DNA of 58,859 nt, filler included, from Jimgerdemannia flammicorona (Eukaryota): NCBI GenBank assembly GCA_003990765.1. It is 3 parts of 3 records of this genome, joined end to end, with 100 filler letters (N's around TTAATTAATTAA, not from the genome) between each part and the next. Parts side by side here need not be neighbours in the genome. Positions count along the whole stretch, not along the records: positions 1 to 19,558 come from RBNJ01001912.1; 2 more parts are not named here. One strand, written 5' to 3'. Positions within the stretch are counted from its first letter, which is position 1. Every line of letters starts with the position of its first letter. The translations under genes were made by a program, and so were the position numbers. Below, piece after piece: positions 1,871 to 55,400 of this stretch. The notes under the pieces were generated by a model, which saw only the letters and a list, made by a program, of their open reading frames with translations, ran no database searches and had not been told where the DNA came from.

Positions 1871-2299
1871 TTTAGGGTGCTGAGCTTTGGGATAGCGAGC
1901 TGAAGTGTGTCAAGCTTGGGGGGGGCCAAGTAAATACTTATTGGCTGGGCACTCATATCTATGTTTTCTCAACATAGTGGTAAATTAAGTGAGGCAAAGT
2001 GAAGGATGAGATGAAGTGAAGGATGAGGCAAAAAGAATGAGAGGTGAAAGTAAGCTTTTTGATATCTTAAATGTTCAAAAGCTATAATATCTTTCAGAAG
2101 CTCTTTCAGAATCTCTCTGAAATCTCTTTCAGAAGCTCTTTCCAAATCTCTTCGAAATCTCTTTCGGAATCTCTTCAAAATCTCTATTGAAACCTATTTC
2201 TAAATTGTATATTTGCAATCTGAGGAATAAGGGTAAGGGAGGTGGAGGAATATGTGAGGGTTGTGTACGAGGAGTAGAATACAAGAGGAGTGGAATGCA

Positions 2300-2927
2300 A
2301 GAGGAGTGGAATACAGTGAGGAAAGCTCCAGATTGTAAGCATAAGTATAAGTATAAGTGTAAGCATAAGCTTTGCTCTGCTCAGCTAATAGCTGATATCA
2401 TGTGATATCAGCTTATTATCAGCTTGTCAGACTGAGCAGAGCAAAGCTTATGCTTGCAATCTGGAGCTTTCCTCACTGCATTCCACTCCTCTCTACAAGA
2501 TTCAGTGGATTCTGCATAAGCCCCAATTGAGCAAGGTTTGCAACAATGTTTGAGCAAGGTTTGTAGTACATTTGAGCAAGATTTATAGCGAGGTTTGAGT
2601 GAGATTTGCAAGTGAGATTTGTATAAGTCAGGCTTTGCAAGTCTTGTACTTGCAAGCTCAGCTGATAGCTGATATCATATCATATCAGCTTATATATATA
2701 TCATATTAGCTTGTGACTGAGCTTATCTAGGCTTGCAAGTGCAAGACTTGTAAAGCCTGACTTATATAAATATTACTTTAATCTTACATGCAAATCTCAC
2801 TTACAAATCTTACTTTAATCTTGCTTGCAAATCTTGCTTGAACCTTGCTGCAAATCTTGCTCAAACACACCACAAATCTTGCTCAAATGTTATTGCAAAC
2901 CTTGTTCAATGCAGAACATGCTGAATC
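2300..2927. repeat. two adjacent long inverted repeats, each centred on the same ~60-bp palindromic core
   Basis: Arms 2300-2384 vs 2432-2492 and 2499-2656 vs 2730-2927 are reverse complements. Cores 2380-2436 and 2657-2721 both read CTCAGCT-ATAGCTGATATCA..ATATCAGCTTAT..AGCTTGT-GACTGAG. Confidence 0.85.
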
Positions 2928-3270
2928 TCCAAAGTATGTTTGCTGTTTGCAGTTGCATGATGGATACTAGTTTATCACCTATGCATATTTATTCATCCAT
3001 CCTCTGTCCACAATCAATCATTGGCTATCACACACCACCTTGCTACTCTCTCTCTTGCTGCCCCCCAGCTCGCTGACTCTTGTTCCAGGCCCCACAGTTC
3101 CTGGCTTTTCCCACCACTTGCTGCCTCCCCCCAACTCCCTGCTCCCTAGTTCACTACCCCCCCAGCTCGTTTCCCAGTTTGCCACTCCCTAGCTCACCAC
3201 TTTCTAGCCACTTTCCAGCTCTTGGCCTCCCACTCAAGCTCCCAGTCTCTGCCATCATTAAACATTTGAA

Positions 3271-5595
3271 ATGTCTAAAGATCAAGAAGTATATTTAGGA
3301 GAAATCTTAGAACTGTTGGATGATATATTGGAGGATATATCAGAGGATATATCAGATATCTCCACTAGTTCATTATTACCAACAAGCATGAGAATAAAAA
3401 TAAAAACAAAACCTAGTGATAGCTGGGTGTCAAATCATACCACAAAGGTAGTTTTATATATTATGCTAATGGTTAAATTCATAGGGGTGATTGGTCTCAT
3501 CAGTCATAAGAATGGGTGGTTAGTTGTAAGTAGTTGAGGTTCTAATATAGTCTCATATCTCTCTATTCAAATAGAATTTACAAAGTAAGCTTATCAGTTG
3601 CAACTATTGCATGACTTAGAGCTATATATTGAAGGATGGCAATATCAACAATCTTAAATGATATCTCTGGAAGCATTACAATGTTATGCTCTTATCTCTC
3701 CAGTGTGCTGAGAATCCTCGCTGGTCTAAGAAAGATGATATTATAAGTATGGATAGAATGGAATTCAGGAAGTACTTAGGAGATTATTAGAAAAATAATT
3801 GATCAAATTTTATTATTACAAATAGGAACACACTAGTAAGACTTTAAGTAATGAAAATTTCTATCAATTAATTGCCAACTTCATTGTCACTGGATATCAG
3901 CTATTCTTCACTATTGAAAATGCTAGCTTCAAGTATCTCCTTCACATATTATACCCTGATATGGCCCTTCCATTGGCTGATACGATTTTATAAGTTATTT
4001 GAAAGGAATTCGAACTATTGTAGACTTAAGTGAAAGTAAGGCTAGCAGGGCTCAAGTTGAAGGTATTACTTACACTTGATTGTTGGACATCAGATATTAA
4101 CATTAAGACCTTCCTTAGAATAATAGCCCATTGGATTGACAGTGATTGGAAGATGCATGACATTATCTTAGACTTTGTGAATATTAGCAAAATAACACAC
4201 ATGGGTGCCAATCTTATGAAAAGTCTGGAGCTAGTAATAGATGATTTATTACCTAGTAACAATCAAATCATTACTATTGTGTGTAACAATGCTAGTAACA
4301 ATGATACTCTGTTTGAGAATCTCCATCATCTGCTTACTCATGTATGCTGTTTTGGATATATGTTGAATCTCATCATTCATAATACTCTTGGTTCTCTTAG
4401 TGAGCCCATTGGAAAGCTACGAGAGTTGATAAAGAAGATTAAAAATTCAGTACAATGATAAGCACAACTGACAAAGGTCTGTGAATCCTCCAGAATTCCC
4501 ATTTTGAAGCCTCTCTTAGATGTTATAATGAGATGAAGTTCTATATATAAAATGTTAGCACATGCTCTGGAGATTCATAAGATAAGATTTTAAATCTATT
4601 TGTATAGATTTTGGAATATAATTCGGAAGTATTTTGGTACTAAATAAATTGATATTACATCCAAATAGGGCTTGGATATATTGTGTACCATGGATAAGCA
4701 AATGAGCAATATATCTGAAGATGTATGGCAACAATTTGAATTGATTTGCCAATTTCTCAAGCCTTTTGCCAAAGTGACAACTGTGATATCAGCTTCAAAG
4801 TATCCTGCAATAGCAGCTATTATCCCACTATTTAATTGGCTATATGATCATCTCAAAGATATCATCGATACATATCAAACTGGTGAAAATTTTAATCAGG
4901 TATATATATAATTTTGAAAGTAATTTTATTTGTAAATTTAAGAACTAATTTAGTAAGTAATTGGGAAGTAATATGTGTATATTTTTATTTTTTATAGATA
5001 ATGCTTACTGCTACTGAGAATGCATGTACAAAACTTCTAAAGTATTACTATAAGATGACACCATTATACAGCATAGCTTTGGTCTTAGATCTATATATCA
5101 ATATATGTTATTTCCATCATGAGTAATGAAAAAAATCCTTAATTGATGAATGGAAGAATCAGATGGAACATATCTGGGAAAAGGAGTATAAGCCTGTTAA
5201 TGCTATCATTATACCCTCAATATCTTATAATGTCAATGATTTTATCAACTCAATATATGAGAAGAACAGTACATTGATGTGGATGATAAGCTTGAATGGT
5301 GAGTGTTGTTTTTATGTTTTTTGGTTGGCTTGATTAATTTTCACTTATATTTCTCTGTTTCAGTTATTTGTCAAAGAATCTAGCTGATCCTCATATAGAT
5401 ATACTGAATTGGTGGTAGCAAAATCAGTTAGTATATCCTAATCTTTCATAAATGGCTTGTGATTATCTTACTATTTTGGTGACATCTGTTCTATCTGAAC
5501 ATATTTTTTCTATTGCTGGTGAGCTAGTGACTGAATGTCAAAACAGCTTGTGTGTAAATACAATTCGTACATTCATGTGTTTGGATTCTTAGTGG
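3271..5595 (+). pseudogene. hAT transposase pseudogene (BED zinc finger, DDE/RNase H-like core, hATC dimerisation domain), with introns
   Basis: W..CNYC..GNINNLK*YLWKH (BED); LTLDCWTS..FLRIIAHWID; CCFGYMLNLII; FLKPFAKVT; DILNWW*..YPNLS*MACDYLTILVTSVLSEHIFS (hATC). Probable introns ~3449-3574, ~4900-4997 and ~5300-5363; many stops. Confidence 0.9.
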
Positions 5596-5659
5596 TCTTC
5601 AGATATTTTTCACTTTCAATTACTCTGAATATTATCTAAATATTTTCTGAATCATTTTT

Positions 5660-5770
5660 TCAGGGCAGAGTTCAGAGGGTCGGGTTCAGGGTCAGGTTCA
5701 GGGGTTGGGTTCAGGGTTGGGTTCAGGGGTTGGGTTCAGGTTTAGGTTAAGAGTAAATAATAGGTCGGGT
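5660..5770 (+). repeat. GGGTTCAGGGGTT short repeats, inner part of the hAT right end
   Basis: Tandem GGGTT(C/G)AGG units immediately before the LTR insertion; the right end continues after 18042. Confidence 0.7.
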
Positions 5771-5981
5771 GATATTGTGATGTATGCAATTGATAATGGA
5801 GTACCAGTGACTGCTAAGATCAGACGACATAATGGCATGACAATCGAATAGACAGCCTGACCCATTAGGTGATCACTCCAAAAGGAGCAATGATAATCCG
5901 AGCCAAAAGGAAGACTACGTTATTTAAAGAACCATACTCCACCTCAGGAATCAGCACCAAAGAACAAGTATCCACCACACA

Positions 5982-6899
5982 ATGCCTCCAATCCGCTACC
6001 CCAACCACCACTCTTCCCCCTTACCTGGCCCAAAGACTCTAATCCTTGAAGCAATCAAGAAGGCTATTTGGCACCCAGACACCTCTGAACATCTGAACTT
6101 CTACACCAAGGATCTTGGACACTTTATCAATTACCAGTACATAATGACCCAATAGCTCAAAGATACCACTGAATGAATGACCCTCTGGTATGATTACGAA
6201 ATTGGACACCACCTTCATAATGAAACCCAAGAAGGTGACCAGAAAGACCTCATTGCCGAAATGTTAACTACCAGCTGGCTAATCAAGAGAGCCCTCCATG
6301 TCTACCAAATCTTCCACCATATTCCCTGGGCTATAGCATACTTACAAGGAGTAACTGCTGGAAGTCTTGCCTGTCTCTCAACTGAAGATGCAGACTGGAT
6401 AGAATCAGAAGTAGCCAACTCTATTGGTAGTAACCAGGTCACTGTAGGAAGCCAACAAACTGAGCCCACTCAACCAGGCTTTCACACCACTCCACTCCGA
6501 GACAACCACTAAGATCACCTAATGAGTCTCATGGAAATCTTCGAAGGACCACCCATTACTATTACAAAACCTGTTGGAGCAACCCCAACTACTCACCACC
6601 CTGTCAGCTACAATTCGCACCTCATCGTTTGGGAACTAAATCAAGAAGTCCCAGAAGTCCCTACCAATACAGAAACTGGAGGATCTGAGGAAGAAGAAGA
6701 GGAGGAACAAAGAATCTACCAATCCTCTGTCCGCCTTCAAGCAGTCTAAGAGTTGGAGAATTTCATCGAAGATGATTGGCCACAATTCTACCCCCTCACC
6801 TCCTGGTTGGCACTCCCACCCTTTGAAGAACAGAATGAAGAAGTCACAATCCAGCAAGATGATTGGTTCACTGACAAAGGGTACTTTACCATTCAGTGA
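5982..6899 (+). pseudogene. disrupted copy of the LTR-encoded ORF (5' LTR)
   Basis: Same sequence as 16047-16973 with a deletion near 6005 and TAG/TGA/TAA stops. Confidence 0.8.
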
Positions 6900-7146
6900 T
6901 CTAACGTCCATTTCCTCAGTCCAGTTAGCCAATGTTCGTCAGCAAGTCAGTAACATCCGTTTCCAGCGATATCACCCCCAACAACCAAATCCAGTACTGG
7001 CACTCGTCTTATCTCAATTCAGTGATCCAATGTCCGTTTCCTTAGTCCGGTTAGCCAACATTTGTCAGTAAGTCAGTAACATCCGTTTTCAGTGATACCA
7101 CCCACAACATCCATATCCAGTACTAGTACTCATCTTATCCCAATTC
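6892..7146 (+). repeat. 2 x 126-bp direct repeat in the LTR U3 region (also ~16966-17220), CCAAT-containing, enhancer-like
   Basis: TTCAGTGATC...TTAGCCAA...GTCAGTAACATCCGTTT...CTTATC repeated at 6892 and 7018. Confidence 0.8.
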
Positions 7147-7217
7147 GGCGCAAACAACTATCACACCCATATTTAGCAATTAAACCACCACAATATAGTA
7201 TACCTTAGCCCCCCCCC

Positions 7218-7272
7218 CATAGCTAGCAAAATTGTATAAATAACCCTATATCTTAAAGTGAATAAACCTCAG
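7218..7272 (+). promoter_or_regulatory. LTR core: TATA box (TATAAATA) followed by AATAAA; second copy at 17293-17347
   Basis: CATAGCTAGCAAAATTGTATAAATAACCCTATATCTTAAAGTGAATAAACCTCAG; near-identical module in the LTRs of elements B and C. Confidence 0.7.
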
Positions 7273-7973
7273 TCAGTTTGTGTTTAAAAGTAAAAAAAGG
7301 AATTACAGAGAAACCTCACTGCCTCCAAGAGACCAGATAAATTCTGAGAACAAGATAACTAGAGCAATGATCGCTCAAGGTTTGAGTTAAAGAATTTTCT
7401 CTTGCCACGGAAAAACGTTCAAGATTCGCTGCTAAGGAAAGCCACATGAAAAGCCGTTCAGTTCAGTTTAAAGACCTGCCGCTAAGGAAAGTTATATGAA
7501 AAAACCGTTCAGTTCAGTTTAAAGACCCGCTGCTAAAGGAAAGCTGCACAAAAACTGCCAACTGCTGCCAAGATCCTGCCAACCCAACCATCGTGCATTC
7601 GGAACCAACCACCATTCGAGGTTCAAGACTGCACATTTGAGACCTGCCATTCAAGTGTTAAGACCCCAGCCAAGGAACCCAAGGATACTAGAACAAGACC
7701 GTCAGTGAACAACCAACTGCCAGAACCCACCCTCAAGTTAAGAACAAATGTTCAACTGAACTATTGACCTGAACGATTCCCTACTGCACCATGAACTGTG
7801 TATGTTCAAGAAGTAATTCGCCCCGAGCCTCCATCATATAAATCGAATGCACTGATCATGTGACTATCTACCCGTAATCGTCGTGAATGCACTCATATCC
7901 ATCACACACTTCACCAAGTGGCACATTGAGCCATGCTTGAAGCAACTAGAGATACAAACCGGATGCTACATTT

Positions 7974-8036: not shown

Positions 8037-11000
8037 ATAGTAGAGAACTTAACAGGACCAAGTCAGCAACCAAACCAGGGGCAGCAACAGCCCTCCTCAG
8101 CAGAAAAGAAAGCCCACACTCTTGTCAGAACAGTAGCCAGGACCCTATTCAACACCAGTAGCCAGAAAACTGAATCAGAAGAAAGAAGTGACCCAGATTA
8201 TGGTTTGACTTCAAGAGAAAGGAGACAACTCAAAGGACAACCAGAACTGCCCCTTCAGATCCAAGACTTAGGCCAAGAAGAAGAAGAGGACATTCCCGAG
8301 GAGTATCAAATCCTTATCCATAGGAAGAACTCAGACAGAAGTGACTACATAACTACTGTTGTTACTTGAGTCACTCCACTAGACCAGGTATACTTTGAAA
8401 CATCAGAAGGAGAAGAGGACTACCATCCATATCAACCAGAGCAAGATGATGATTGGGGATCAGACCATCAAAGAGACGAATTCAACCTATACTATTATCC
8501 AGACAGCGACACAAACCCACAACAAGGTGAACAAGACCTCACTACTTCACAACAACAAGGGGCAGATGAACTCACTATCAGTTATATCAGTCCACTCCCA
8601 CCATCAGTTGCTCAAACTTCAGTACCCTGGTCACTCATATCTCACCACTATCACCAGTCAATCAGAAGATCTCCACCACTACCCAGGACTTCAACCCCAG
8701 CATTAATTAGAAGAGCCAGATTACCCTCACCCTCACCAAAACACCGCCCTCTGCCAGCACCACTAGATCATCAAGTACTAGCACCACCACCTTTCCCATC
8801 ACCCTGAGGATCCGCCAGATCCCCTACTCCTGAACAATACTCAGATAGTGAAGATGAGCCAGACATGAGCTACCTTCAGAAGTTCCATGGTGCAGACAAT
8901 GAAGACATCAAGGAATTCTTTGGAGAAATTGAAGTTCAAGCAGCTGCCAAACAATGAGATGCTGCAAGAAAACTCAGAATTGTGGAGTCACTCCTGAGAG
9001 GACCAGCCCTACAGAGGTATAATCAAGCCAAGTAAGCCGGAGGAGGAATCCATGCAGAGGAACTGAATGATAGCCTTCAACCTGATAGAAACCATGTAGC
9101 AAGGTACATAATTCACAAAGCCTGGCTCCATGCCCAGTTCAATGGATTCAAGTACCAATAAGAAGTACAGGAGGCTTTGACCTATATGAGCCAAGCTGCC
9201 AATGAAACTCCCAAGAGTTTCTACCATCGGATTCAAGCTCAAATGATCAAGGCAAACCTTCAACCAGCAGTCCAACTAGCTCTAGCTTCAACTACCTTCC
9301 TCAATGGCTTATACCCAGAACTTTGAAGGCAAGTTATCAGGATGGGATATCGAAACATTGAACAGCAAGTTGCTGGAGCACAAGGATGTTGGGAAGCAGA
9401 TTATAAACCGGTACAACAAGTACAAGGCTATCCTGAGCCAATCTGAGCTGAAACTCCAAGGACCTGAGGAACAACCATGGAGCAAGAGAACGCCTTCCTC
9501 AGAGCCCAAATAGCCAACTATGAGAACAGACCAGCACCCACAAATCTGACTCCATTCAGGAAACCACAGTAGCAGCCACCATCAAGAGTTCAAGAAGACC
9601 CCATGACAATGCTCACCAAGCAAATGAAGGACCTGGCCATCGCAGTTGCCTAGCTGAAGAACCGAGGTAGAAGACAACAAGACTACCATCATGATAACAG
9701 ACCAGACTACCGGCAACAAGATAAAAGAGGTCCTGCTCCCACACTACCAGCTGCAACTACAGTCTCATCAGCGACTGGTTCCTATGGTCCCACCTACTTC
9801 AACTGTGGAAATCAAGGCCACATCCAGAGGAATTGTCCAAGGAACCAATCCACCCAGTCCAATGACAGAAATGTCAACCTCTTTCAGGTAGATGAAGAGA
9901 CTCAGGAAATGAAAGAAGAAGCAGCCTGGCTCCATGGTCAAGAAGATGACATCTATCCATACTTCGAGGCTTTTCCATCTAAGGTGACATGGGAAGCTGC
10001 CCCTGCAGAGACCAGAGGATGAGGAAGACCACAAAGGAACCCCCCACCTCAACTGCCAGTAACAATATCCACAGGCAAGCATCTGCAATATGACCATTCT
10101 TCTTCAGATACTCTATAAGAACAGGAGAAGCAAGTTAGAAGAGATACTCCTGAACCAGAAGCTGGACCATCTAGGATAACCCCCAGCTCTACCCTGCCAG
10201 ACCTTGAAGAAGATAAGCATATGAACATAGAATCTTCAGCTGACAAAATGCCCATCAGGAATGAGAGACTACACTCCAAGGGACCAAGACACCGAAGAAG
10301 CAGCAAGCCCCATGCAGCAGCCTCACTTTGGGAACATATCCGCCTACAGAATGCTGGTCTTACAGTTGAGCAAGTCCTCAAGAATGCACCAGAGGTCAGG
10401 CGAAAATTCCTGAAAGAAGCCAAGAAAGATACCAAGAGACTTCCAGTCCAAGGACCACATACTCAAGAACCTAGCACTATCCACATAGCCTATGAGAGCC
10501 AGCGATATGAACATCAATTTACAAGACTCACCAATGGAAAAGTGCATGGTGAAAATGCCAGAATTCTCGTCAATACTGGAGCAGCAGTATGCATCATCAC
10601 CCAAAGGATTTTGGAGTGAATTGGATGGGAAATAGATGAAGGAACCAAAGCAAGAGTTATCATGGCCAACGGATCAGCTTCTACACCCCTTGGACTTGTC
10701 AGAGACATCCCCATTCAAGTCGGAAAGACCTGCCTCAATGTACCCAAAGCCATTGTAACCCCCACAACCTCCTATGACCTGATTCTGGGAACTGACTGGT
10801 TAAGCCGAGTCAGAGCTAATGTAGATATTAAGAAACAACTCCTGGTCTTCTCCATTCATGGACAGAAGTACAAGGTGCCCATTGACTTGAAAGGATTATC
10901 CAAAAAGATGAATCAAGCCTCAGAAACAGAATGGCAAGGATATGGTAACACCCCCATTACTACTGAGGATGAAAGTGAGGCCAATTTCCTACAAGAACTA

Positions 11001-14000
11001 GGAAGTGATTTCAATGCCCCAAGGGACCAAGAAAGTGAACAAGAAGACTCTTTCATTGGAGTTATTGGTGTCGAAGGTCTGGAAGAAAGCATTGATAGAG
11101 CCATTAATGCAAGGGCAGCACTTGAGTCTGCAGGACCATCTGCTCAACCACCATTACCACTGGTAGAAAATCAGATCATGCGAGCCTTTCGTCAAGGCAT
11201 ATGTGAATATTTTATCAGCTTCCACTCACCAAGAGATGATTGCAGCAATTGCCGAATCCTGGATCTCAAGAAGGTTCCAATGCCAGAAATTGATGATAAG
11301 GACAAATTGAAGCAAGCACCTTCCCACAGTCGAATACAACCTCCAACCCCGAAGACCTTCAAGAAGACCTATAAGGGAGGACAGAAGATCCTCGCCCACC
11401 AAACATTCAAGTCCCTTACTATCGAAAGAGAAAGAAACAGCTCTTACACTATCACCTGGGCCCTCCAGATCACACAGCCCACCTATGACAAGTATCGGAA
11501 GAGATTCCCTACCAGTAGGGAAGTCAAACAGCGAAATAAAGACTTTGTCAAGAAGGGACATTGTGATTGCAGAAAGACCTTTACCTGCCACTGGTATGAA
11601 CATCGAGATGTTCACCTCAGCAAAGATATCTACAAGAGCCGAGTCTAGAGAAAGGATTCCACTCTGCAAGAACCTCGAATTCACTGGGCCTGTTGGAAGT
11701 GCAAAGAAATCAACCATGAAGGAGATTGCAAGATCAAGAGCAAGACCTCTATCTGGGACCTACCATTGGAAGTTCTTGCCATCATTTACTGGTACTGTCG
11801 CCCTCATCAAGAAAAAGAAGGTATCAATCTTGCCTTCATCCTTATGGAAGCTCTGGACCCTCTAGGAAAGACTGGATTCAATTACACAAGAAACTCCAAG
11901 ACAGGAGCTCACTGGCCTTTCTTCAAACTGGAGTGCATGAACTTCTCACCTATAATGGCAACAGCTGAAGCACTATTTCTCAAAGCTGAACCAATTATCC
12001 AGGTCAAGCTGCTTTCACCCTGAGTACAGCCACCTCTTGCACAAATAGAAGGATCAGTTGGTTATAACCTCTGCCTCCCCTACCAAGCAAGAATCCAACC
12101 CAGAAGTACCAGGACTTTTGATCTACAGATCACACTTGCTATACCACCTGGGCATTATAGACAATTGGCCTCAAGATCCTCATTGGCAACCAAAGGAGTC
12201 ACAGTAGAAGGAGGAGTCATCAATCAGGACTACCGAGGTCTCTTGAAGGCCATTATCTGCAATTCTAGTAGAACCAGCTGATTCTTCAGCCCTATGGAAG
12301 CCATCTGCCAAATCCTATTTATCAAGACATCACAGCCGACTATCCAAGAGGTAGACCAACTAGAAAATACCAACAGAGGACAAGGAGGCTTTGGAAGCAC
12401 CAATAGAAATCTACGGACACTACCTATCGAGGTTCATTTAGCAACAGTTACTCAATTCTGACAAATGAGACCCCACATCTACCACCCAATCTGAGCAAGA
12501 GAAGACATCCTCCTGCAGCCCTACCAGCAAAAAGGCCTAAATGTGCACCTACCAGTAGAAGCAAACAACTTGATATTTGCACCATCACTGGAGCTTCAAA
12601 AGGAATGCTACATCCTCCTGGCTGAAGAACAAGTTCATGACCAGATATCACCGATCCACATCTCTATCAGAAACTTGGGCTTCAAAGTGATAACCATCCC
12701 CAAGGGAACAACACTGGGATATTTCGAACCACTGATAGACACCTATAAGGAAGAAGTCTTTGAATTCTTGGGAAATGGCAAGCCCTCTCCGGTGAGACTG
12801 ACGGTACCAGGGAGGAAGACTCAGCAAATTCAGCAATCAAAGCCATCAACATCGAGACAACTCTAACCAAGGACTAGCAACAACAGATACAGGAGTTGAT
12901 AGAGGAGTACAAAGATATATTTACCACCACATATGTATGATAACTTCCCACCATATCAATATGGAGAACACCCTATACATACTGGAGATGCAAGACCAAT
13001 CTGACAACAACCCTACCAAACTCCACATCATCTGATTGAATTTGAACAACAACACATAGATGAAATGCTATGAAATGGAGTCATCAGACCATCATCAAGC
13101 CCCTGGGCTTCACCAGCAATCATAGTACCAAAGAAAGGAGGATGGAGATTAGTCGTGGATTTCAGAAAACTCAACAAAGTCACCACAGAAGATGCCTACC
13201 CACTGCCAAGAATTGATGACCTCATCAATGCCCTTGGAAAAGCCAAATACATGACCACTACTGACCAGTTCCAAGGATTCCAAATAATACCCATTGCCAA
13301 AGGAGATATCTGCAAGATGGCCTTCATCACCAGATGAGGACAGTACGAATATCTACGAATGCCCTTTGGACTCTGCAATGCACCTGCCTCATTCCAACAA
13401 ATGATGAACTATGTCTACTGGGATCTCATTGGAAGAAATGTACTAATGTACATAGATGATGTAATCATCTACTCTGAGACATTCAAGCAGCATTTGCAAG
13501 ACCTCCGCAAAGTATTCAATACCATTCAAAATTCAGGACTCAGACTCAATGTCAAGAAGTGCTTCTTCGGAAAACATCAAGTCAAATATCTGAGATATGT
13601 TGTCTCAGCTCAAAGAATACATGCCGACCCCTGCAAGGTGGAGAAAGTCAAGAACTACCCAACCCTGACCTCAGCAAAGGAGACCCTATCTTTCCTTATG
13701 CTGGCATCCTACTATCGATAATTCATCCCAAGGTTTTCAGATAAGGCAGCACCTCTCCGAGATATCTCCAAGAAGGACCAACCATTCTACTGGAAAGAAG
13801 AACAACAAAAGTCATTCGACCTACTCAAGAAGGCCCTTACTGAAGCCCCTGTCCTGGTGTGACCAGACTTTGGCAAACCATTCATCCTGACAACTGATGC
13901 CTCAGCCTTAGGACTTGGATCAATTCTATCTCAGCAAGATGACCAGAAGAGGGAGTATGTTATCGAATATGCTAGCAAGGCCACAAATGAAACACAAGCA

Positions 14001-14309
14001 AACTATGGAGCCACTAAGTTGGAATGCCTAGCAGTAGTTTGGGCTGTGGACCACTTCTGACACTATCTCTTGGGAAAGAGATTTGCTCTCATCACTGACC
14101 ATTAAGCTCTACAATGGTTGTTCAACAAGCCGGAGCCCTCAGGAATCTTCACTAGATGGATCATGTCTCTGCAAGAATATCAGTTCACTATTGTCTACAA
14201 GAAAGGTGCTAAGAATTCCAATGTCGATACCCTGTCAAGAATCCCGTGAAACCAACAAGAAGGGAAGGAACCCCCACAAGAGAAGGCTGCTTCCCGCTCA
14301 CCCAAATGA
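8037..14309 (+). pseudogene. single-frame gag-protease-dUTPase-RT-RNase H polyprotein of element A (many in-frame stops)
   Basis: ORF fragments 10221, 10662, 11766, 12543, 13155 and 13359 share one frame. Capsid-like KFHGADNEDIKEFF at 8865; knuckle (C>Y)FNCGNQGHIQRNC ~9796; protease ILV(D>N)TGA; RT MPFGLCNAPASFQ..YIDD; RNase H LTTDASALGLG..KLECLAVVWAV. The start at 8037 is inferred (ATA from ATG). Confidence 0.9.
11990..12405 (+). pseudogene. dut: dUTPase domain of element A
   Basis: Motifs GSVGY(N)L, SRSSLA, GGVI(N)QDYRG, AICQ and RGQGGFGST, in the polyprotein frame. Confidence 0.9.
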
Positions 14310-15515
14310 ACCAAGAATTGCACCTCGCCCTCACCTGGAGTCTGCACCATAGAAGCTTCAAGAAAGGAATCCAACCAGCTCACAAGTTATTTATCCAAAG
14401 GAATTTCAAGAAATTCCAAGAAGGTGATGGCAAACTTTGGAGAGTAGAAGGAGAGCAGTACACCCGAGTTCCAAGAGAGGAAGAAATATTGAAGATCCTG
14501 ACAACAAATCATGACCAAAATGCATACTGAGAAATTGGCACCACTATTGCAAGAATCAAGAAGCAATACTGGTGGCCCAAGATGAGAAAACAAATTTCAA
14601 TGCACATTCAACAATGTGATACCTGCCAAAGATACTGACAAAAGCCTACTGACAAAGTACCATTAATACCGATTGCAGCACCAGCTGGAGCCTTTCAAAG
14701 ACTGGGAATAGATATTATTGGACCCCTACCAGTAACCAGCCGAGGAAGATGCTACATCCTCACTATCGAAGACCACCTGACAAAATGGTCTGAAGCCTTT
14801 GCCATTGAGACTGCTGATGCCCAGATAATTATTGGGATCCTGTATAATGAAATTTTCAGCTACCATGGTGTGCCCAAGGAAATCATTACAGACCAAGGCT
14901 GAGAATTCATCAACCAAGCCATGAAGACCTTTGCGAGCAACTTCAAGATCAAGCTACGACTAATAACAGCCTACTACCCATAGGCAAATGGACTCACTGA
15001 ACGAATGAACCAGACCATCAAGCGAGGTCTCAGTAGAACTGGAGATCAACTAAACTGGGATATCTATCTACCGGCAATTCTGTTCAGCATCCATACCTCT
15101 AAGGCAACCACTACCCAACAGACCCCCTTCTATTTGGTGTATACAAGATCCTACTAAACCAGTCCAGCTAGATCTGTCAAAACGAGTCACAGAAGAGATC
15201 ACCCGGTTATACAACATATGCCAGCAAGCATGAGGATTTATCACCAAGGCACAAGAATGACAAAAGAGGTACTACAACTGCAAAGCCAACCTCAAACCCC
15301 TGCTCATTGGACAAAAGGTTCTGGTGTACCATACCATCATAGAAGGAAATTGGAGTGCCAAGCTTGAACCAAAATGGGAAGGCCCCTATCTCATACACCA
15401 AGTATTCTCATACCACACTTATCAACTCAAGACCTTGGATGGAGTTATACTCAAGACCAAGATACACCATAACCGCATAAGACTCTACTACTCAAGAGAA
15501 GCAAAACACATTTGA
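14306..15515 (+). pseudogene. integrase of element A (HHCC zinc domain, rve core, GPY/F), separate ORF with its own ATG
   Basis: MNQELHL...; YWWPKM..CDTCQ; GIDIIGPLP; IITDQG; NGLTERMN; KLEPKWEGPY. In the -1 frame relative to RT-RH; one decay frameshift near 15147. Confidence 0.9.
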
Positions 15516-15840: not shown

Positions 15841-18042
15841 TGTGACGTATGCAATTGACAATGGAGTACCAGTGACTGCTAAGATCAGATGACATAATGG
15901 CATGACAGTCGAATAGACAGCCTGACCCATTAGGTGATCACCCCAAAAGGAGCAATGATAATCCAAGCCAAAAGGAAGACTATGTTATTTAAAGAACCAT
16001 ACTCCACCTCAGGAATCAGTACCAAAGAACAAGTACCCACCACACAATGCCTCCAATCCACCACCCCAACCAGATCTCCTACTGCTCTTCCCCCTTGCCT
16101 GGCCCAAAGACTTTAATCCTTGAAGCAATCAAGAAGGCTATTTGGCACCTAGACACCTCTGAACATCTGAACTTCTACACCGAGGATCTTGGACACTTCA
16201 TCAATTACTGGTACATAATGACCCAACAGCTCAAAGATACCACTGAACAAATGACCCTCTGGCATGATTACGAAATTGGACACCACCTTCATAATGAAAC
16301 CCAAGAAGGTGACCAGGAAGACCTCATTGCCGAAATTTTAACCACCAGCTGGCTAATCAAGAGAGCCCTCCATATCCACCAAATCTTCTGCCATATTCCC
16401 TGGGCTATAGCACACTTACAAGGAGTGACTGCTGGAAGTCTTGCCCATCTCTCAACTGAAGATGCAGACTGGATAGAATCAGAAGTAGCCGGCTCTATTG
16501 GTAGTAACTGGGTCTCTATAGGAAGCCAACAAACCAAGCCCACTCAACCAGGCTTTCACACCACTCCACTCCGAGACAACCACCAAGGTCACCTAATGAG
16601 TCTCATGGAAATCTTCAAAGGACTACCCATTACCATTACAACACCTGTTGGAGCAACCCCAACTACTCACCACCCTGTCAGCTACAATTCGCACCTCATC
16701 ATTTGGGAACCAAATCAAGAAGTTCCAGAAGTCCCTACCAATACAGAAACTGGAGGATCTGAGGAAGAAGAAGAGGAGGAACAAAGAATCTACCAATTCT
16801 CTGGCTGCCTTCAAGCAGTCCAAGGGTTGGAGAATGTCATCGAAGATGATTGGCCACAATTCTACCCCCTCATCTCCTGGCCGGTGCTCCCACCCTTTGA
16901 AGAACGAAATGAAGAAGTCACAACCCAGCAAGATGATTGGTTCACTGACAAAGGGTACTTTACCATTCAGTGATCCAATGTCTGTTTCCTCAGTCCGGTT
17001 AGCCAATGTTTATCAGCAAGTCAGTAATATCTGTTTCCAGTAATATCACCCCCAACAACCAAATCCAGCACTGGCACTCGCCTTATCTCAATTCAGTGAT
17101 CTAACGTCCGTTTCCTCAGTCTGGTTAGCCAATGTTTGTCAGCAAGTCAGTAACATCCATTTTCAGCAATACCACCCACAACATCCATATCCAGTACTAG
17201 CACTCATCTTATCCCAATTCGGTGCAAACAACTGTTGCACCCATATTCAGCAATTAAACCACCACAACATAGTATACCTTAGCCCCCCTCCCCATAGCTA
17301 GCAAAATTGTATAAATAACCCTATATCTTAGAGTGAATAAACCTCAGTCAGTTTGTATTTAAAAGTAAAAAAAGGGATTACAGAGAAACCTCACTGCCTC
17401 CAAGAGACTGGATAAATTCTGAGAACAAGATAACTAGAGCAACAATCACTCGAGGTTTGAGTTAAAGAATTTTCTCTTGCCATGGAAAAATGTTCAAGAT
17501 TTGCTGCTAAGGAAAGCCACATGAAAAGCCATTCAGTTTAGTTTAAAGACCTGTCGCTAAGGAAAGCTGTATGAAAAAACTGTTCAGTTCAGTTTAAAGA
17601 CCCGCCGCTAAAGGAAAGCTGCACAAAAACCGCCAACCACCACCGAGATCCTGCCAACCCAACTGTCATGCATTCGGAACCAACTGCCATTCGAGGTTCA
17701 AGACCGCACATTCGAGACCCACCATTCAAGTGTTAAGACCCCAGCCAAGGAACTCAAGAATACTAGAACAAGACCGCCAGTGAACAATTGACTGCCAGAA
17801 CCCACCCTCAAGTTAAGAACGAACATTCGACTGAACCGTTGATCCAAATAATTCCCTACTGCACCACGAACTGTATACATTCAAGAAGTAATTTGCCCTG
17901 AGCCTCCATCATATGAATCAAATGCACCAATCACATGACTATCTACCCGTAACCATCACGAATGCACTTATATCCATCGCATGCACCAAGTGGCACATTG
18001 AGCTGTGCTTGAAGCAACTAGAGATACAAACCAGATGCCATA
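15841..18042 (+). repeat. 3' LTR of element A (~2202 bp)
   Basis: Starts TGTGACG and ends GCCATA (CA>TA); followed by TSD ATAT. Confidence 0.95.
16047..16973 (+). CDS. 308-aa open ORF inside the 3' LTR; unknown accessory protein with an acidic, disordered C-terminal half
   Basis: Uninterrupted ORF; segment KRALHIHQIF..AIAHLQGVT matches ORF3 of element B (AKRIHKLF..ALAHL*GVT). Confidence 0.7.
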   Translation: MPPIHHPNQISYCSSPLPGPKTLILEAIKKAIWHLDTSEHLNFYTEDLGHFINYWYIMTQQLKDTTEQMTLWHDYEIGHHLHNETQEGDQEDLIAEILTTSWLIKRALHIHQIFCHIPWAIAHLQGVTAGSLAHLSTEDADWIESEVAGSIGSNWVSIGSQQTKPTQPGFHTTPLRDNHQGHLMSLMEIFKGLPITITTPVGATPTTHHPVSYNSHLIIWEPNQEVPEVPTNTETGGSEEEEEEEQRIYQFSGCLQAVQGLENVIEDDWPQFYPLISWPVLPPFEERNEEVTTQQDDWFTDKGYFTIQ

Positions 18043-21646: not shown

Positions 21647-24600
21647 TCACTCCATCATGTTAAGCTAAATAGAGGAATATAGATGGATGAGTAATAAGTT
21701 TTGGCAACAAGATGCAACCTTTCACGAAATAGCACGTGATAACGAAAATAAAAGAATGTATGCTCACCAAATCGTCCGTATCCACCGCATCATCATCCAC
21801 CGGCCTTTCAGGTTGCACCGGCACTATCTCGGCATTGCGCAAGAACTACACGACGTTTTCACGCGTAGAGCAACGTATATTGATCATTAAAGCCCGAATC
21901 TCAAACGAACCTGTCCCCCCAAAAAAATAGATAAATAAATCAAGGCGCACCTTGTCCGCCTCTCCCTGGGTCACCTTGCTACTCGGTGACTCCTCCGAGC
22001 TGATAATCGTAACGTTCTCCGCGACGACCATGTCCCAGAAATCGGCGCGGCGCGACGTGCCCAAGCATGTGGCGCGGAGGTCGGGCAGGAAGGCATTGAA
22101 GATGTCGGACTCGTTTTCCTAACGTTGGTGAGCAAGCAAGGGATGCATATGGACATGGAGGGGCGTGAGCGAAGATCCACACACAAACAACAACCTGATT
22201 AGGCCCCGCGTTCGTAAAAGAAAGCGTGGCACAAACTTGAAACCACCATAGGAACCGGGCATAAAGACTGCGGACTCACCGACACACACACCTCCCTTAG
22301 CGCCTTGAGGCAGTCGACGGCTTTGGCGTAGAACTGGTCGTTGAAGGAGGTGGTCACCAATTGCTTGATCACGTCGCACATCTGCTCGACGGCTGGGGAG
22401 AGGTGAGACGAGAGAGATGGGAAAACGATACCAGGAAAAAATGTGTGAGTTCACCGAATGACATTGTGATCGTGTTAAACGCAACCTTCGTCGACTAACA
22501 CCACCCCATTCAACCATCAAAAGGAAAAAGGAATCCTACCCAGGGAGACCAAATCTTCCTGCCGATTCGCGACCATGCTCCTGAAATCCGCTACCGGATT
22601 CACGGTACCCACACGACGCACAGCATTCTCCGTCAACGCGCGCATATTCATTCCCGAGGGATACGTGGCATCCTCGCCTTCGATTTTGACGCGCATGGCG
22701 GGGTCTTCGCTCGGTCCGCGGTTAAGAATGTCGTTGACGGTTCCGACGCTCGAGGCACCCGTCAAGGCTGCAGTCGTGGCGGCGCCATATCCGCGTTTGG
22801 TGTCCTTGGTCTTGGCTTGAACTTTCCGAAGTTTGTATTCTGTATTAGACCTTGATGTGGTTGACGCGCTGCTGAAATCCATCAACCCGTAAAAATCATA
22901 TGCACTCACCCTTCTTGACATCAAACAACGTTTTCATCTCTTGCACGAGTCCCCTCGTACTCTCGGTCAGTTCTGGGACGGGCCTCAACTGTGCCAGGAG
23001 TTGATCATGGCTGGGCGGGATGGGTGCGGATGGGTCGAGCGCGCGGATTTTGATGGCTTCGTTGAGACGCTGGTAGGCTGGGTTGAAGGTATTCTCCGGG
23101 GGGAGGTACTCGCAGACGTCGCTGGGATGAATTAGTGACAGAAGGATAAGTTTTACTTTTAAGATAAATAGGAAGAAAACAAAGCTGCTCTACATACCCT
23201 TCATTGTCCCTCCCTACACTCATGAGGTCCATGGCGCGAATGAATTCCTCGGTCTTGTTGAGCATCTCCTCCGACGGGATGTTCTTGTGTTCTGTCAGCA
23301 CCTTCCCCGACGCCGTGACGATCTTCTCCAGCGACGCGAATGTATACCTCCGCACGTCCTCTGCAAACGGAACCTATCCGGCACAATCCAAAGTACGGTC
23401 AGCTCACAAACGATCGAAGCCACGTCCTTCCCCCCCACCGCCTCCTTCCCGCTACCGGCGCCACTCCTCCTGCACCTACCTGAACAAAGTACAACATGTC
23501 CACCCCAGGCACGAACGCTGGAAATAATAGGCCGAGCTTGGGTCCTGCGTCGGTGCGCGATACATATCGGGTAAGGGCGAGATTATTCTTCTCCAGCAAG
23601 CCACGGGCGAAGGCCGAAAGGGCGACGCCGGCACCCTCGTCGTACGGCGGTGGCACAAGGATGTAGACGTTGGACATGGAGTAGTCGCGGGGGAACTGTT
23701 GCAGAGGTGGGAGTTATGAGGTGGGGGTCTGGCGGGACGCATGTAGTTGTGTAAAAACACTGCGGAATTAAACAAGACAGTAGGCAAACCCACCGCATCG
23801 GCATTCAAGAATCCCAAAATGGAAAGCTCCTTATTCGTCTTCAACTTAAGCACCTCCTCATCAACCTTCCTGATCGGCACAATGGTCTTCCCGTACATAT
23901 ACGCCTTCTCGAGATCCTCCTTCTCCACCTCTTCCTCCTCGACACCCTCGCCGGCCTCGCCCATACCCTTAATTTTGAACGTCCTGCTCATCGTGACCTC
24001 GCATGTCTTCCTTTCGTTCTCTGGAGAGGTTTCCGCGAGTACTGAGTACTTCTTCGCGGTGAGCGACTTGAGCTCGTAGGTGCGCGCGAACATGTGCACG
24101 GGGATCGCGAGGGCCGTGTCCGGGTGCGCCTCTGGGTCGCCTAGTGTCAGATCGCCTTGGTAGACTGTCGTGGGTTTCACGGACTTCGTGCGAAATGAGA
24201 AGAGCTCCGAGAAGGCTTCCGGCACCGTGATGAACGTGCCGTTGACGTTGGTAATAAGAGAGCGGAAGAATTCTTCGTTCTCACGCTATGGGGGGGGGAA
24301 GGGATGGAGGGAGGGGGAGAAATATGCTGATTGAGAGTGGCGTGTGTCTGCGTTTCCGGATTGTGTTGCCAGTGTTTCCAGGACATAATACCATATCGTA
24401 TGAAGAGCTCTTTCGTATCAACATACCTTGACATCAGGCTTATCTTCCTGCTTGAACCCAGTATCCGGATCATCGAAGTCAATTCCACTATCCATACAAC
24501 CAAACCAATGCCAATGGTGGTACCAGAAAATAAACATAAAACTGTCGGTAAAAAGAGCCTTTGCTAAAATAAAAAATAAAATAAACATGCTCCGCCCCCT

Positions 24601-25423
24601 CTCTCTCGCCCGGGTGCCCAAATAACAATCCCACTCACACAATCGCCAACTCAATGTTATTGTTGATTAATTGGTTCTGAATAGCTTCAGCGTCATCAAT
24701 GTTGACGGGGGTCTCCGCGTCTGTGAAGAGAACAAGCTTCTTCTGATACTTGAGCTGACGGCAGTGGACGACCATCATGTCGATGGCGACAATGAGGGCG
24801 TCGATGACTGGAAGGGGAACAAAGAAGATATTTTTTAAGTATGCTCCGCGCGCAAAGGCAAGGCATTGGGAGATAATGTAATGGATTCTCACGGTCGCCC
24901 GGATCGTCACCCACGACAACGCTACTGTTGAGCTCGCGGAGGAGGGCCAGATTTGGCTGCGAGATGGCGCGCAGCTCAGTGATGTGCTCGTACTGGCCTG
25001 GTTCGGTGGCGAGATGATTCTCCGTCTCTATTGTGGCGCGAATGTAATACGTCAGTGGCTTCAATGCTATTCCATATTCATAGTAGTATGCTTAGTATAT
25101 TGGAAAGAATACCGTTCGTGCCGGAGAGCACCACGCCGACCATGTCCGTTTTGCGGCCTATAATGACCTATGAAACGCGAGCGAATCGAGGAATTAGCTT
25201 CGTTTGAAGCCTCGAAGTGACATTCGCACTATTCGGCCACTTGAGATTCACAGTGCTAAAAACGCGATCCACGCGTCACTGGGCTGACACACACCTTGTC
25301 CTGGATCATAGCGGTAAGGAGCTTGATGGAGTTGTCAAGATTCGTTACGTTTTCATTCTGCCTCTTTGCGCCCATGGTTGGGGCCAGGTCGAGGAGGTAA
25401 ACGGTTGCGGCCTTGCCTGCCAT
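21647..25423 (-). CDS. KU80: Ku80 (XRCC5/YKU80) DNA end-binding subunit, multi-exon
   Basis: vWA start MAGKAATVYLLD; DALIVAIDMM; core KAYMYGKTIVP, ALTRYV..PKLGLLFP, FAEDVRRYTF; C-terminal VGTVNPVADF, KAVDCLKALRE, ending DDLLNMME*. Confidence 0.93.
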
Positions 25424-51237: not shown

Positions 51238-52420
51238 GGTACTTCTTGAGTCAGTTTTGGTAAATGGTAGTGGGGATTATTGTGCCTGAGGGCTTTCGTA
51301 GTTGGAAAGTGGTCCCTTTTATATCTTGCACCAGGTAAGGTCCTTCCCATTTAGGCTCCAGTTTTCGCGACCAAGAAGCTTCTACTATATTCCAATATAC
51401 CAGAACTTCATCTCCTATCTTGATAATCTCCAGGGGCTTGTGGGTTTTTTCTGCATTGCTCCATTATAGTGCCTGTGCCTTGATTATATAATCTTCTGCC
51501 TTTTTCCTAATTTGATGCAATCTCTGTATCTCCGTATCCACATGCTTCCAGATTGTATCATTACCTGCTGACAAACTTCCACCAGAACCTTCTTTACTGA
51601 ATAGCATTTCTCGTGGTGTAAAATGGGTACTTTGTGATCATATATCCAATAGAGTAGATAATGCTATTGGTAGATAGTGGTCCCAGTTTCCATATTCATC
51701 ACAGATCTTGGCAATGATGTTCTTGAGGGTCTTATTGATTCTTTCTGCTTGCCTGTTTCCTTGTGGGTGATAGGCTGTGGTTTTGATGTACTGGATCTTG
51801 TACTTCTTGTAAAGAACCTCATGGAACTGGTTGACGAATTCTGTTCCTCTGTCTGTAGTAACTTGCTTTGGGGTCTTGAATCGGCAGATGATTTCTCTAT
51901 GAAAGAAATCGGCAATTGACTGTGCATTGGCTTCCTTGAGGGGTCTGGCCTCTACCTATTTTGTAAATAGATCTACTATTACAATGACATATCGGTTGCC
52001 AGTCAATGTCAGGGATAGAGGGCCAATTACATCCATTGTGATGTGGGCAAATGGTATTGGTTTGATGTCTGCTGATCCAGGGGTTTGATCCTGTTGGTCT
52101 TGTTTCTGTTTCTGGCATTTGTCACAGGTTCTGACAAATTGTCTGATATCTTCTTCCATTCCAGCCCACCACATGGTTCTTCTCACTTTGTTATATATAT
52201 TTGTTCCTCCTACATGACCTTGTTCATGTACCTCTTTTATCACTTGGTTCTTCCAGTGCTCAGGGATGACTAATTGTTGTCCTTTCTTGAGTATTTCTCT
52301 ATCAGTTTTGAATTGTTTCCATGTCCGATTAATAATTGTTTTTGTCCATTCTTCTAGATGCAGGGGCATCTTTTGCTGCCCCAGGTAGCTGATGATTCCA
52401 TAGTACAGCTCTTTATTCAT
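51227..52420 (-). pseudogene. integrase of element B, separate ORF with its own ATG
   Basis: MNKELYYGIISYL..HEQGHVG..WWAGM..CDKCQ; TMDVIGPL; KLEPKWEGPY; +1 frame relative to RNase H. Confidence 0.9.
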
Positions 52421-55400
52421 GGTGATTTTGTAGGGGTGGGGTCCTTCGGGGTGTCTGTGAGAGGGTGTCAGCATTGGCATTGATTTTTCCAGGGCGGTGG
52501 ATGATTGTGGCATCATATGCTTGCAGCTTCATGATCCATCGGGCATAGATTCCTTTGGGCTCACTGGTAGTGAGCAACCAAGTGAGTGCTGAGTAGTCTG
52601 TCTGAATGGTGAAGTGCCTTTCAGTCAGATAGTAGTGAAACTTCTCTACAGCCCAGATGACTGTAAGGCATTCCAGCTTATAAGACTCATAGGACTGCTC
52701 TGCCCCACAAGTACCTTGGCTGAGATAGGCTACCACGTATTCAATGCCATTCTTCTTTTGTGTAAAGACAGCTCCAAGTCCCATTGCACTGACATCCATC
52801 TGCAGAATAAACTCTTGAGTCCAGTCAGGTCTTCTCAGGATTGGAGCCTGGGTCAATCTGGTCTTAAGCTCATCAAAGGCTAGTTGCTGCTGCTGAGTCT
52901 ACTGGAACTGACCTCTTTTCTGAACAGATCATAGATAGGACTGGCAATGTGGGAGAACCTTCTGATAAATCTTCTGTAGTAGGATGCAAGTCCCATGAAG
53001 GCTCGGGCTTCAGTGGTACTGGTAGGTACTGGGTATGCTGCTACTGCCTTGATCATTGTAGGGTCTGTATGTATTCCTTCATGGTTGATGATGTGTCCAA
53101 GGTATGCAATTTCTTCTTCTCCAAACTTGCATTTCTTAGGCTTGATATAGAGGCCATGTTTGTGAAGCCTTCTGAGGATTTCCTCAATGTAGCCCAAGTG
53201 TTCTTTGGCTGTTTGGCTGAAGATGATCACATAATCTACATATACCATCATCCATTTCTCCATAACATCTCTGAAGATACTGTTCATCATTCGCTGGAAG
53301 CTTGCTGGTACATTGCACATTCCAAAGGGCATGCGGAGATAGACATAGGTTCTATCGGGGGTAATGAAGGCTGATCTTTTGCTGGCTTCAGGTGTAAGGC
53401 CGATTTGGTAGAATCCTGAGAACAGATCCAGGGTGGTGTAGAATCGTGATTCATTCCCCAGTATGATAAGAATATCGCCAATGTTCGGCAATGGTTGTCT
53501 GTCCTTTTCTGTGACCTCGTTGAGTCTTCTATAGTCTGTACAGAGTCTTGGTGTAAATTCTCCTGGTTGGCTTCCCTTCTTTGATGCAAGGATGATGGGA
53601 GAGGACCAAGGGCTGCTGGCTTCTTCAATGATGCCAGATTCCTCCATCTCCTTGATTTCTGTCTTGAGCCATTCTCTGTATGCCAGTGGAATGGGGCAGG
53701 CCTTCTGATAGATTGGCTTTGCATCTCCAGTATTGATGTCATGACAATACAAGGGTTTCTTGGTCTTGATGTCCTTGAAATCCGTGGCCAGTATATCCTT
53801 GAATGTATGCAAGAGGCTCTGTAATTCTTCCCTGAGGGGGTAGTTTCTTCCGATTGTGTAGGTGTGTTTGTCTTGGCTTTCCTCCTTCTTGTGCTCCAAT
53901 TCTGTAATTTTAGTTACTGTGAGGACTCCTCTTCCTGTAGAGCCGAATCCAGCTCTTCCTCATTGAGTTTGCCTGATGTTTGCGACCTCCTTGATTCTTG
54001 GATTAAGGACAGGTAGGATGAGCATTTGCGCCAGCCGATCCTTCTTTCTTACTTCGAATGGGATTGTTGGGTTGTGGTTCCTGGTGAGGAGAAGGATTTC
54101 TCCAGTATAATCTGAATCGATGACTCCTCCTTCTATAGATATTTTGCTCTTTGCCAGGCTGCTCCTTGTCTTGAGGATTCCAACATGGTTTGGCAGGATG
54201 GCTACTTCAATTCCTGTTCCTAGAATGGTGGTGGTCTGCAGTTCAAGTATTGTGTGTGTTGTAGTGGATAGGTCCATTTCTGCTGCATTCTCCGATTTGT
54301 ATTGTGGCATGACTGCATTAGGGTAGATTCTTCATATCTTGACTGTGATGTCTTCTTCATCATCGCTGTCATCCAATAGTTATGGTGGTCCATCTTCTGG
54401 TTCCTCCTGGTTCTTCTTTGGCTTGTTGGTGATCTTCTTCACCTCAATGATACAGGAGTAGCAGCAATCCAAGTGCTGGGCACAGTACATTCTTTCACCA
54501 TAGGGGCACCTTCCTAGTGGGGCATATCCATCTGCGATTCTTGTATACCATTCTTCCTCTGTCAATTGCTTGTCTTTTCCTTTCTTTATAGTAAACATAT
54601 AGGCTTCTTCTTCTTGGTCTTCCTCCATCTTGGGGCGGACTCCTTTGTGGACATTGATGGGAATTCTGATCTTCTTTCCCTGGTAAATGATCTGCATCTT
54701 CTGTGCACTGAGGTCAATCATTGCCTTGGCTTTATGAAGCCATTGATTGCCGATGAGGATATCATAGTTGGTTGCATTGGTGACGATGACATCCACAGGG
54801 ATAGTGGCCTCTCTGAACTTGATTGGTATATCTCAGATTTTTCCCAAGGGTGTTGCTTGTGTCCCATCAGCTGTGACAAACACCAATTTGGTGGCTTCTT
54901 CTATCTCCCAACCTAGGCGGTCTACTGCTTTCTTGGTGATGAGACATCCTCCTGCTCCTGTATCAATGATGGCTTCAAAGACCCAGTCCTTGATCTGGCA
55001 GGTAGCATAGGCTGATGTTTTCCGGTTATCTTCACTCTCTTCATCTGAATCTTCTTGAGCATTGTTGGCTTCAATTATTCTGTAATCTTGGTCTTTGCCG
55101 ATGTCTGAGATTCCTGTCCTCATTTGTTGTCTGAATGTTAGGATTTCAGCCAGCTGGCCAAAGGTTGCATTGACCTTTTGGTCCTTGAGGTCCTTGAAGA
55201 TGTCATACTTGAAGGTCTTGCTCTTGTGCAGTTTCTGCTCCTTCTTTCCTTTGCTTGATGGGGTAGTATTTCGAATAATATCTTCTACTGCTTGCTCCAG
55301 TTCAGCATCTTGTTCCAGCTCCATATCTTGATCAGCTTTGCTCTGTTGGTTCTCTTTTTCGATGACTGTTTCTGGTTGTCTTATTTGTGTCTGGGCCTTC

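Follow-up and report, generated by a model that had tools for sequence, protein, structure and literature searches.

A 58,859-nucleotide (nt) stretch of DNA, filler included, from the Endogonales (Mucoromycota) fungus Jimgerdemannia flammicorona (GenBank assembly GCA_003990765.1; hereafter the window) contains a decayed long terminal repeat (LTR) retrotransposon, element A, in which Gag and Pol share one reading frame while the integrase is encoded separately, from an ATG that overlaps the stop codon of the upstream open reading frame (ORF1). As judged from sequence comparison, this two-ORF architecture is conserved in intact copies of related elements, with the ORF1 stop and the integrase start lying close together in varying frames. 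On these alignments the conserved feature is an AUG beside the stop, not the tetranucleotide ATGA itself. These elements carry the gene set of a canonical retroelement in a cistron structure that is non-canonical, and precedents for their likely mode of expression exist in other systems.

The LTRs of element A flank an internal coding region, as in an LTR retrotransposon, and are 91.7% identical over 2201 columns (Table 1). Its domains follow the Ty3/gypsy order of gag (CCHC), protease (PR), reverse transcriptase (RT), RNase H and integrase (IN), as do those of the relatives L001, L002 and L049 according to Pfam. The first-pass annotation of this DNA had described Gag as fused to Pol without a frameshift, and this description holds for the domains of A from gag to RNase H and for intact relatives, although "one frame" in A means reading through 28 in-frame stops (18 TGA, six TAA and four TAG between 8370 and 14306) with no change of frame. 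Five internal stops interrupt the integrase homology region, and element A is a dead copy. The Integrase_H2C2 and rve domains were found by Pfam in a frame other than that of ORF1, opening at 14213, and in an alignment of the A integrase with element B and the proteins P0001 and P0002 the CC, D, D and E positions are invariant. ORF1 ends ...tca ccc aaa tga in frame 0, and the integrase ATG lies in frame 2. A second frame break in the integrase, considered near 15190, was countered by a C-terminal likeness to P0002 that, though weak, stays in the same frame. Element A belongs, as a decayed copy, to a clade of Ty3/gypsy-type LTR retrotransposons that departs from the Ty3/gypsy pattern in that the integrase, instead of lying within the Pol polyprotein, is a separate ORF in A, in element B and in eight relatives.

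Element B lies on the minus strand of the window at about 51.2-55.3 kb, and the same break had been reported there by the first-pass annotation. Its position was given correctly, as the break in B falls at an aligned position identical to that in A; the junction differs, being an 8-nt overlap (ATGAATAA) with the integrase in the +1 frame instead of ATGA with the integrase in -1. The RNase H frame of B ends ...NHHE-TAA, and an additional frame change between RT and RNase H is decay. The metagenomic relative L001, 84% identical to B over 6.1 kb, carries the same junction as B.

Other copies of family A were found by matching contigs from four runs of three studies to positions 13600-15100 with a likeness of at least 80%; three runs came from soil metagenomes, the fourth bears no label beyond "organism A", and all are of DNA or unknown type. 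All X1, X2 and X3 contigs, and one of the two X5 contigs, have A at 14246 and C at 14247, so that other copies read cca cga where element A reads ccg tga; the suspicion that TGA 14247 is a decayed CGA was thus well founded. Among the matches listed, one X3 contig lacks a single nucleotide at 14073, which is the sole indel within 13600-15100 and leaves 14074 to 15100 free of indels, and positions 14271-14321 show no base difference. Five contigs bridge the junction without a gap (X2 record 12; X3 records 17, 19 and 20; X5 record 28). On this comparison ATGA is likely to be invariant across family A; relatives beyond the family use other junctions. Between 13600 and 15100 the copies differ overwhelmingly by transitions (X1 shows 32 T>C, 20 C>T, 17 G>A and 16 A>G changes against two transversions), and element B differs from L001 by 695 transitions against about 190 transversions. 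This excess of transitions, together with the 18 TGA codons among the 28 stops in ORF1 of A, is consistent with deamination-type repeat decay.

A protein search with the A integrase led to P0002, an intact integrase of 394 amino acids (aa) that begins MNPREY at the same position. In a scan of metagenome contigs by alignment, 595 stretches matched, of which 386 encode a relative, and the best 80 of these 386 were kept as loci. Both the end of RNase H and the start of the integrase are visible in 34 of the 82 sequences (the 80 loci, A and B), 12 being split and 22 fused. Three loci (L005, L010 and L011) have integrase-like ORFs with no detectable RNase H upstream and stand outside this count, and L036 is too decayed for its junction to be judged. 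Two split cases were set aside as apparent decay, L064 having close kin that are fused and L042 sitting on a long branch. In the ten split elements (A, B, L001-L004, L006, L007, L009 and L049) the integrase Met occupies an identical aligned position without exception, which bears out the conservation on which the earlier proposal of a separate integrase depended. The start of the protein follows the consensus M-[N/D]-x-x-x-Y-x-x-L-x-x-Y-L and is placed where canonical elements have the RNase H/integrase linker. L009 and L049 possess an extra, stop-proximal ATG 15 codons upstream of the aligned Met. In L006 and L007, where a spacer separates the stop from the start, no other ATG, in whatever frame, comes between the stop and the conserved one, as read by eye.

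Among the eight split relatives, the integrase ORF is intact in two and ORF1 is uninterrupted in three. In L002, ORF1 runs without interruption for 1493 codons (1486-5967) and the integrase ORF extends from ATG 5960 to 7075; ORF1 of L049 spans 1930 codons and is open at the contig end, its stop being at 5793 and the integrase ATG at 5785; ORF1 of L001 is unbroken over 1281 codons, and the integrase ORF of L004 comprises 409. By Pfam, ORF1 of the relatives holds capsid or zf-CCHC, protease, dUTPase, RT and RNase H, and ORF2 holds H2C2 and rve. The uninterrupted ORF1s of L001, L002 and L049 do not run on through the integrase, and these intact relatives, with the ATGA of A, uphold the proposal that the integrase is a separate ORF beginning from a Met at the ORF1 stop. 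Measured from the ATG, the stop begins at +1, +5, +5, +8, +8 and -2 nt in six families, and in the other two at -56 and -57 nt. Measured on these integrase ORFs, an out-of-frame stop falls within 8 nt of a given codon start with a probability of 0.145. All five independent overlapping families have their stop within 8 nt, and the fifth power of 0.145 is 6e-5, a figure that is only approximate because the families are related.

In a tree of 34 integrase rows, all ten split elements fall into one 17-row clade (support 98/94), where they form two subclades (support 92/89 and 97/89). All seven split elements in which 1.7 kb or more precede the end of RNase H have a dUTPase between PR and RT. None of the 14 non-split elements with 3 kb or more upstream does, and three non-split elements bear a dUTPase-like stretch after the integrase instead. 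An exhaustive profile-free search with P0002 gave 149 other representatives at 50% clustering. Of these, 28 begin at most 12 residues from the P0002 N-terminus (16 of them with Met-1 and Tyr-6), 99 have at least 150 residues upstream and correspond to fused forms or joined gene models, and the other 22 are mostly truncated. No Met stands at the aligned position in the fused relatives inspected (L008 and four proteins). One of the standalone integrases, P0091, belongs to the annotated proteins of Lichtheimia ornata (Mucorales); others come from metagenome bins, some mislabelled archaeal, and the nearest protein-atlas clusters are from Mucoromycota and Rotifera. The P0079 cluster comprises fragments of the clade's standalone integrase filed in NCBI under a Nitrososphaeraceae archaeon metagenome-assembled genome (MAG), an apparent case of retrotransposon DNA of eukaryotic origin binned with a prokaryote.

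In foamy viruses a spliced mRNA yields Pol apart from Gag, and S. pombe Tf1 encodes Gag and Pol in a single ORF with the integrase kept in the polyprotein. The split clade resembles foamy viruses in having a replication enzyme apart from Gag, although there the whole of Pol is separate, and it resembles Tf1 in drawing Gag and Pol equally from one ORF, although the integrase of Tf1 is not separate. A dUTPase between PR and RT has been described in the basidiomycete PosPlaTy3-5 and Phanerochaete elements (PMC2864245) and in the bdelloid rotifer elements Juno, Vesta and TelKA (PMC5408684). As far as the available parts of these sources go, such dUTPase-bearing Ty3/gypsy elements are, like the split clade, LTR elements with the order PR-dUTPase-RT-RNase H-IN, and Vesta1b and Mag likewise have no gag-pol frameshift. 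They differ in the placing of the integrase: in the sections available, all the rotifer families have it inside the pol ORF (PMC5408684) and the fungal dUTPase elements appear only with one fused ORF or with separate gag and pol (PMC2864245), whereas in the split clade it has its own ORF and AUG. A full-text literature search, without most subscription journals and Repbase reports, returned no described Ty3/gypsy lineage with a separate, stop/start-coupled integrase ORF.

Since the AUG keeps its position while the frame relation changes, we favour termination-coupled reinitiation at the integrase AUG as the best candidate mechanism, and give it an even chance of being correct; it is ranked first because the stop/start geometry matches that of known long-ORF reinitiation. 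Ribosomes would finish the long ORF1 on the full-length RNA and then reinitiate at the conserved AUG, integrase would be produced at a fixed low ratio to Gag-Pol, and the free integrase would join the particle or the pre-integration complex in trans; both this stoichiometry and the trans-incorporation are what we infer from the arrangement. Long-ORF reinitiation at UAAUG or AUGA overlaps is described, in the part of the source available, for caliciviruses, influenza B, Cryphonectria hypovirus 1 (CHV1; UAAUG), Helminthosporium victoriae virus 190S (HvV190S; AUGA) and the non-LTR retrotransposon SART1 (UAAUG); the caliciviruses use a TURBS (ribosome-binding site upstream of termination) and reach efficiencies of 3-20% (PMC10275272). 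In these systems, as in the split clade, the stop and start overlap or lie a few nt apart and out of frame, and the downstream product is needed in lower amount, as would hold here. The precedents include fungal hosts and a retrotransposon (SART1), but none of those treated in that part of the source (PMC10275272) is an LTR retrotransposon or separates an integrase, and the upstream ORF of the split clade has 1300-1900 codons. The overlap or adjacency of stop and AUG that characterises coupled reinitiation is found in A, B, L001-L004, L009 and L049. The AUGA-coupled mechanism put forward by the first-pass annotation fits this geometry, but ATGA is not conserved and most junction windows fold no better than shuffles.

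Several points weigh against reinitiation. The relatives are anonymous metagenome contigs. A 7-row fused group with a branch length of 1.47 is nested in the 17-row split clade, so that the split trait needs two changes on the tree, or else the long branch is misplaced. In two families (L006 and L007) the AUG lies 56-57 nt past the stop, and as the L007 stop is in frame, readthrough is equally possible there. An ORF1 of 1300-1900 codons is, to our knowledge, longer than the upstream ORFs of known reinitiation cases. Folding (without pseudoknots) disclosed no stable or shared RNA structure, eight of the nine junction windows of 131-141 nt folding no better than shuffles (minimum free energy z-scores -0.04, +1.07, +2.73, +0.40, +1.91, -0.18, +0.33, -0.31 and -3.68). 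Upstream of the junction, B and L001, the only close pair, show no extra nucleotide conservation (0.87-0.92 against 0.84 overall). Known long-ORF reinitiation, by contrast, requires cis elements, according to the available part of PMC10275272. The L007 window (875-1015) is the exception (z = -3.68, with none of 200 shuffles as stable): its in-frame TAG occupies the apical loop of an 11-bp hairpin, perhaps a signal for readthrough or reinitiation that is restricted to that family. The fuller picture of a polycistronic LTR-retrotransposon clade in early-diverging fungi, which would reinitiate after an ORF of 1300-1900 codons without a recognisable TURBS or pseudoknot-type element and recruit its integrase in trans, is one that we hold tentatively and at somewhat below even confidence.

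The main rival, possible though less likely than not, is that the integrase is a real separate cistron expressed from its own mRNA, spliced subgenomic or from an internal promoter, and that the closeness of stop and start reflects genome compaction. In the spliced form, an acceptor site close upstream of the AUG would receive the leader, in the manner of retroviral env or foamy-virus pol, and subgenomic env and pol mRNAs are established in retroviruses and foamy viruses. A conserved AUG with varying frames fits such an mRNA equally well, as do the lack of reinitiation-type RNA structure and the two families with an AUG 56-57 nt after the stop. Further ORFs after the integrase in L001, L002, L003 and L009, more loosely spaced (overlaps of 20-44 nt, gaps of 56-114 nt), would need a means of expression too. 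Compaction alone, however, does not predict that six of eight families have their stop -2 to +8 nt from the ATG (null 0.145 per family), and the stop-overlapping ATG kept 15 codons upstream of the aligned Met in L009 and L049 also argues against a separate mRNA. Decay or assembly artefact, by which A and B would be dead copies that happened to acquire indels in the RNase H/integrase linker, could draw on the 28 stops in ORF1 of A, on the extra RT/RNase H frame change of B and on the decayed look of the unrelated split cases L064 and L042. We nevertheless find it hardly credible and exclude it, because relatives have intact ORFs: the same junction occurs in the uninterrupted ORFs of L001, L002, L004 and L049. 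The junction is also free of indels among the matches listed from the four runs of three studies, the Met is conserved across ten elements, and standalone integrases account for 28 of the 149 P0002 representatives.

A Gag-Pol-IN fusion could instead be made by recoding, through a programmed +1 or -1 frameshift or stop readthrough, in which case the Met would be merely an internal residue. Frameshifting and readthrough are classical retroelement strategies, and in L007 no further stop separates the in-frame TAG, in its 11-bp hairpin loop (window z = -3.68), from the Met. Yet the frame relation takes the values +1, -1 and 0 among close relatives, the canonical -1 slippery heptamer X XXY YYZ occurs in none of the seven overlaps (read in the ORF1 frame), and the fused relatives inspected, L008 and four proteins, have no Met at the position. 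L006 has an integrase-frame stop one codon before the ATG and downstream of the ORF1 stop; since the ORF1 stop (1278) comes ahead of this integrase-frame stop (1328), the two frames cannot be joined by any shift. In L049 the integrase frame is closed by a stop immediately ahead of the ATG, which leaves only 8 nt for a shift. The varying frames, the missing heptamer and the stops of L006 and L049 exclude a single shared frameshift signal, and we regard recoding of any kind as improbable.

Table 1 Features of elements A and B in the window, and the ORF1/integrase junctions of the split relatives
Element	Feature	Position	Strand	Remarks
A	5' LTR	5776..7966	+	Direct repeat with 15841-18038; starts TGTGA
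A	ORF1, single frame	8370..14309	+	Ends in TGA 14307-14309; 8370 need not be the gag start
A	Gag zf-CCHC	9798-9839	+	Pfam, ORF1 frame
A	Aspartic protease	10533-10808	+	Pfam, ORF1 frame
A	dUTPase	12039-12401	+	Pfam, ORF1 frame
A	RT (RVT_1)	13125-13592	+	Pfam, ORF1 frame
A	RNase H (RT_RNaseH)	13791-14180	+	Pfam, ORF1 frame
A	Internal TGA	14247..14249	+	Private to this copy; cga in other copies
A	Junction ATGA	14306..14309	+	Integrase ATG 14306-14308 overlaps ORF1 stop TGA 14307-14309; integrase frame -1
A	Integrase ORF	14306..15250	+	tblastn homology to about 15250; natural end probably near 15470
A	Integrase H2C2 zinc domain	14477-14635	+	Pfam Integrase_H2C2
A	Integrase rve core	14693-14980	+	Pfam rve
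A	3' LTR	15841..18038	+	Preceded by purine-rich tract
B	RNase H	52449..52880	-	tblastn, translation, Pfam RT_RNaseH; frame continues to TAA 52415-52413
B	Junction ATGAATAA	52413..52420	-	ATG 52420-52418, ORF1 stop TAA 52415-52413; integrase frame +1
B	Integrase ORF	51242..52420	-	Starts MNKELYYG...; single frame throughout, 4 internal stops
L001	Junction ATGAATAA			Integrase frame +1
L002	Junction ATGAATAG			Integrase frame +1
L003	Junction ATGAACACTGA			Integrase frame +1
L004	Junction TGATG			Integrase frame -1
L009, L049	Junction ATGAACACTAA			Second Met 15 codons later at aligned position; integrase frame +1
L006	Junction with spacer			ATG begins 56 nt after stop begins; integrase frame -1
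L007	Junction with spacer			In-frame TAG, ATG 57 nt after stop begins; integrase frame 0

The ORFs that follow the integrase have 156-232 codons (L001 5756-6256, L002 7129-7704, L003 2986-3453 and L009 1627-2325). Those of L001 and L003 match at 24% over 99 aa (E 3e-5), and that of L003 weakly resembles a 326-codon frame at 15993-16973 (+) in the 3' LTR of A (29% over 41 aa, E 6e-4), the counterpart of which in the 5' LTR is broken. Pfam returned no family for the ORFs downstream of the integrase or for the open frame in the 3' LTR of A. The post-integrase ORF may be an ORF3 that reaches into U3.

The window holds further repeats and host genes. A second, partial B-like pol copy at 39760-41889 (-) abuts an N run (39211-39310), and a third, AT-rich and more distant gypsy-like pol remnant with 26-40% identity to A lies at 44416-46268 (-) between the two B-like copies, which suggests nested or tandem insertions. 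Tandem arrays occupy the window ends (18-314 and 57143-57662), with units of 33 nt (at least seven copies) and 18 nt (at least 16 registers). Host genes lie at 22100-25100 (-) and 30600-34700 (+), among them an ORF with a Ku70/80 beta-barrel (23476-24285), identical at 100% over its full length to a protein named as from Jimgerdemannia flammicorona, and a Rav1p_C ORF at 33902-34654.

In textbook LTR retroelements the Gag:Pol ratio is set by frameshifting or readthrough and the integrase is delivered to the particle within Gag-Pol; canonical Ty3/gypsy integrase is cleaved from the Pol polyprotein. The split clade follows the opposite logic, with Gag and polymerase in equal amounts and the integrase alone made separately, which raises the questions of how a ribosome or an alternative RNA expresses a cistron behind an ORF of 4-6 kb and how an integrase without a Gag tether reaches the cDNA. 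Standalone integrase ORFs enter protein collections as separate, mostly unnamed proteins, some of them binned into prokaryotic MAGs, and automated retrotransposon callers may consequently score intact elements as broken. If reinitiation proves true, these elements would represent a new expression and assembly logic for retroelements, and would provide a new natural model for reinitiation after very long eukaryotic ORFs.

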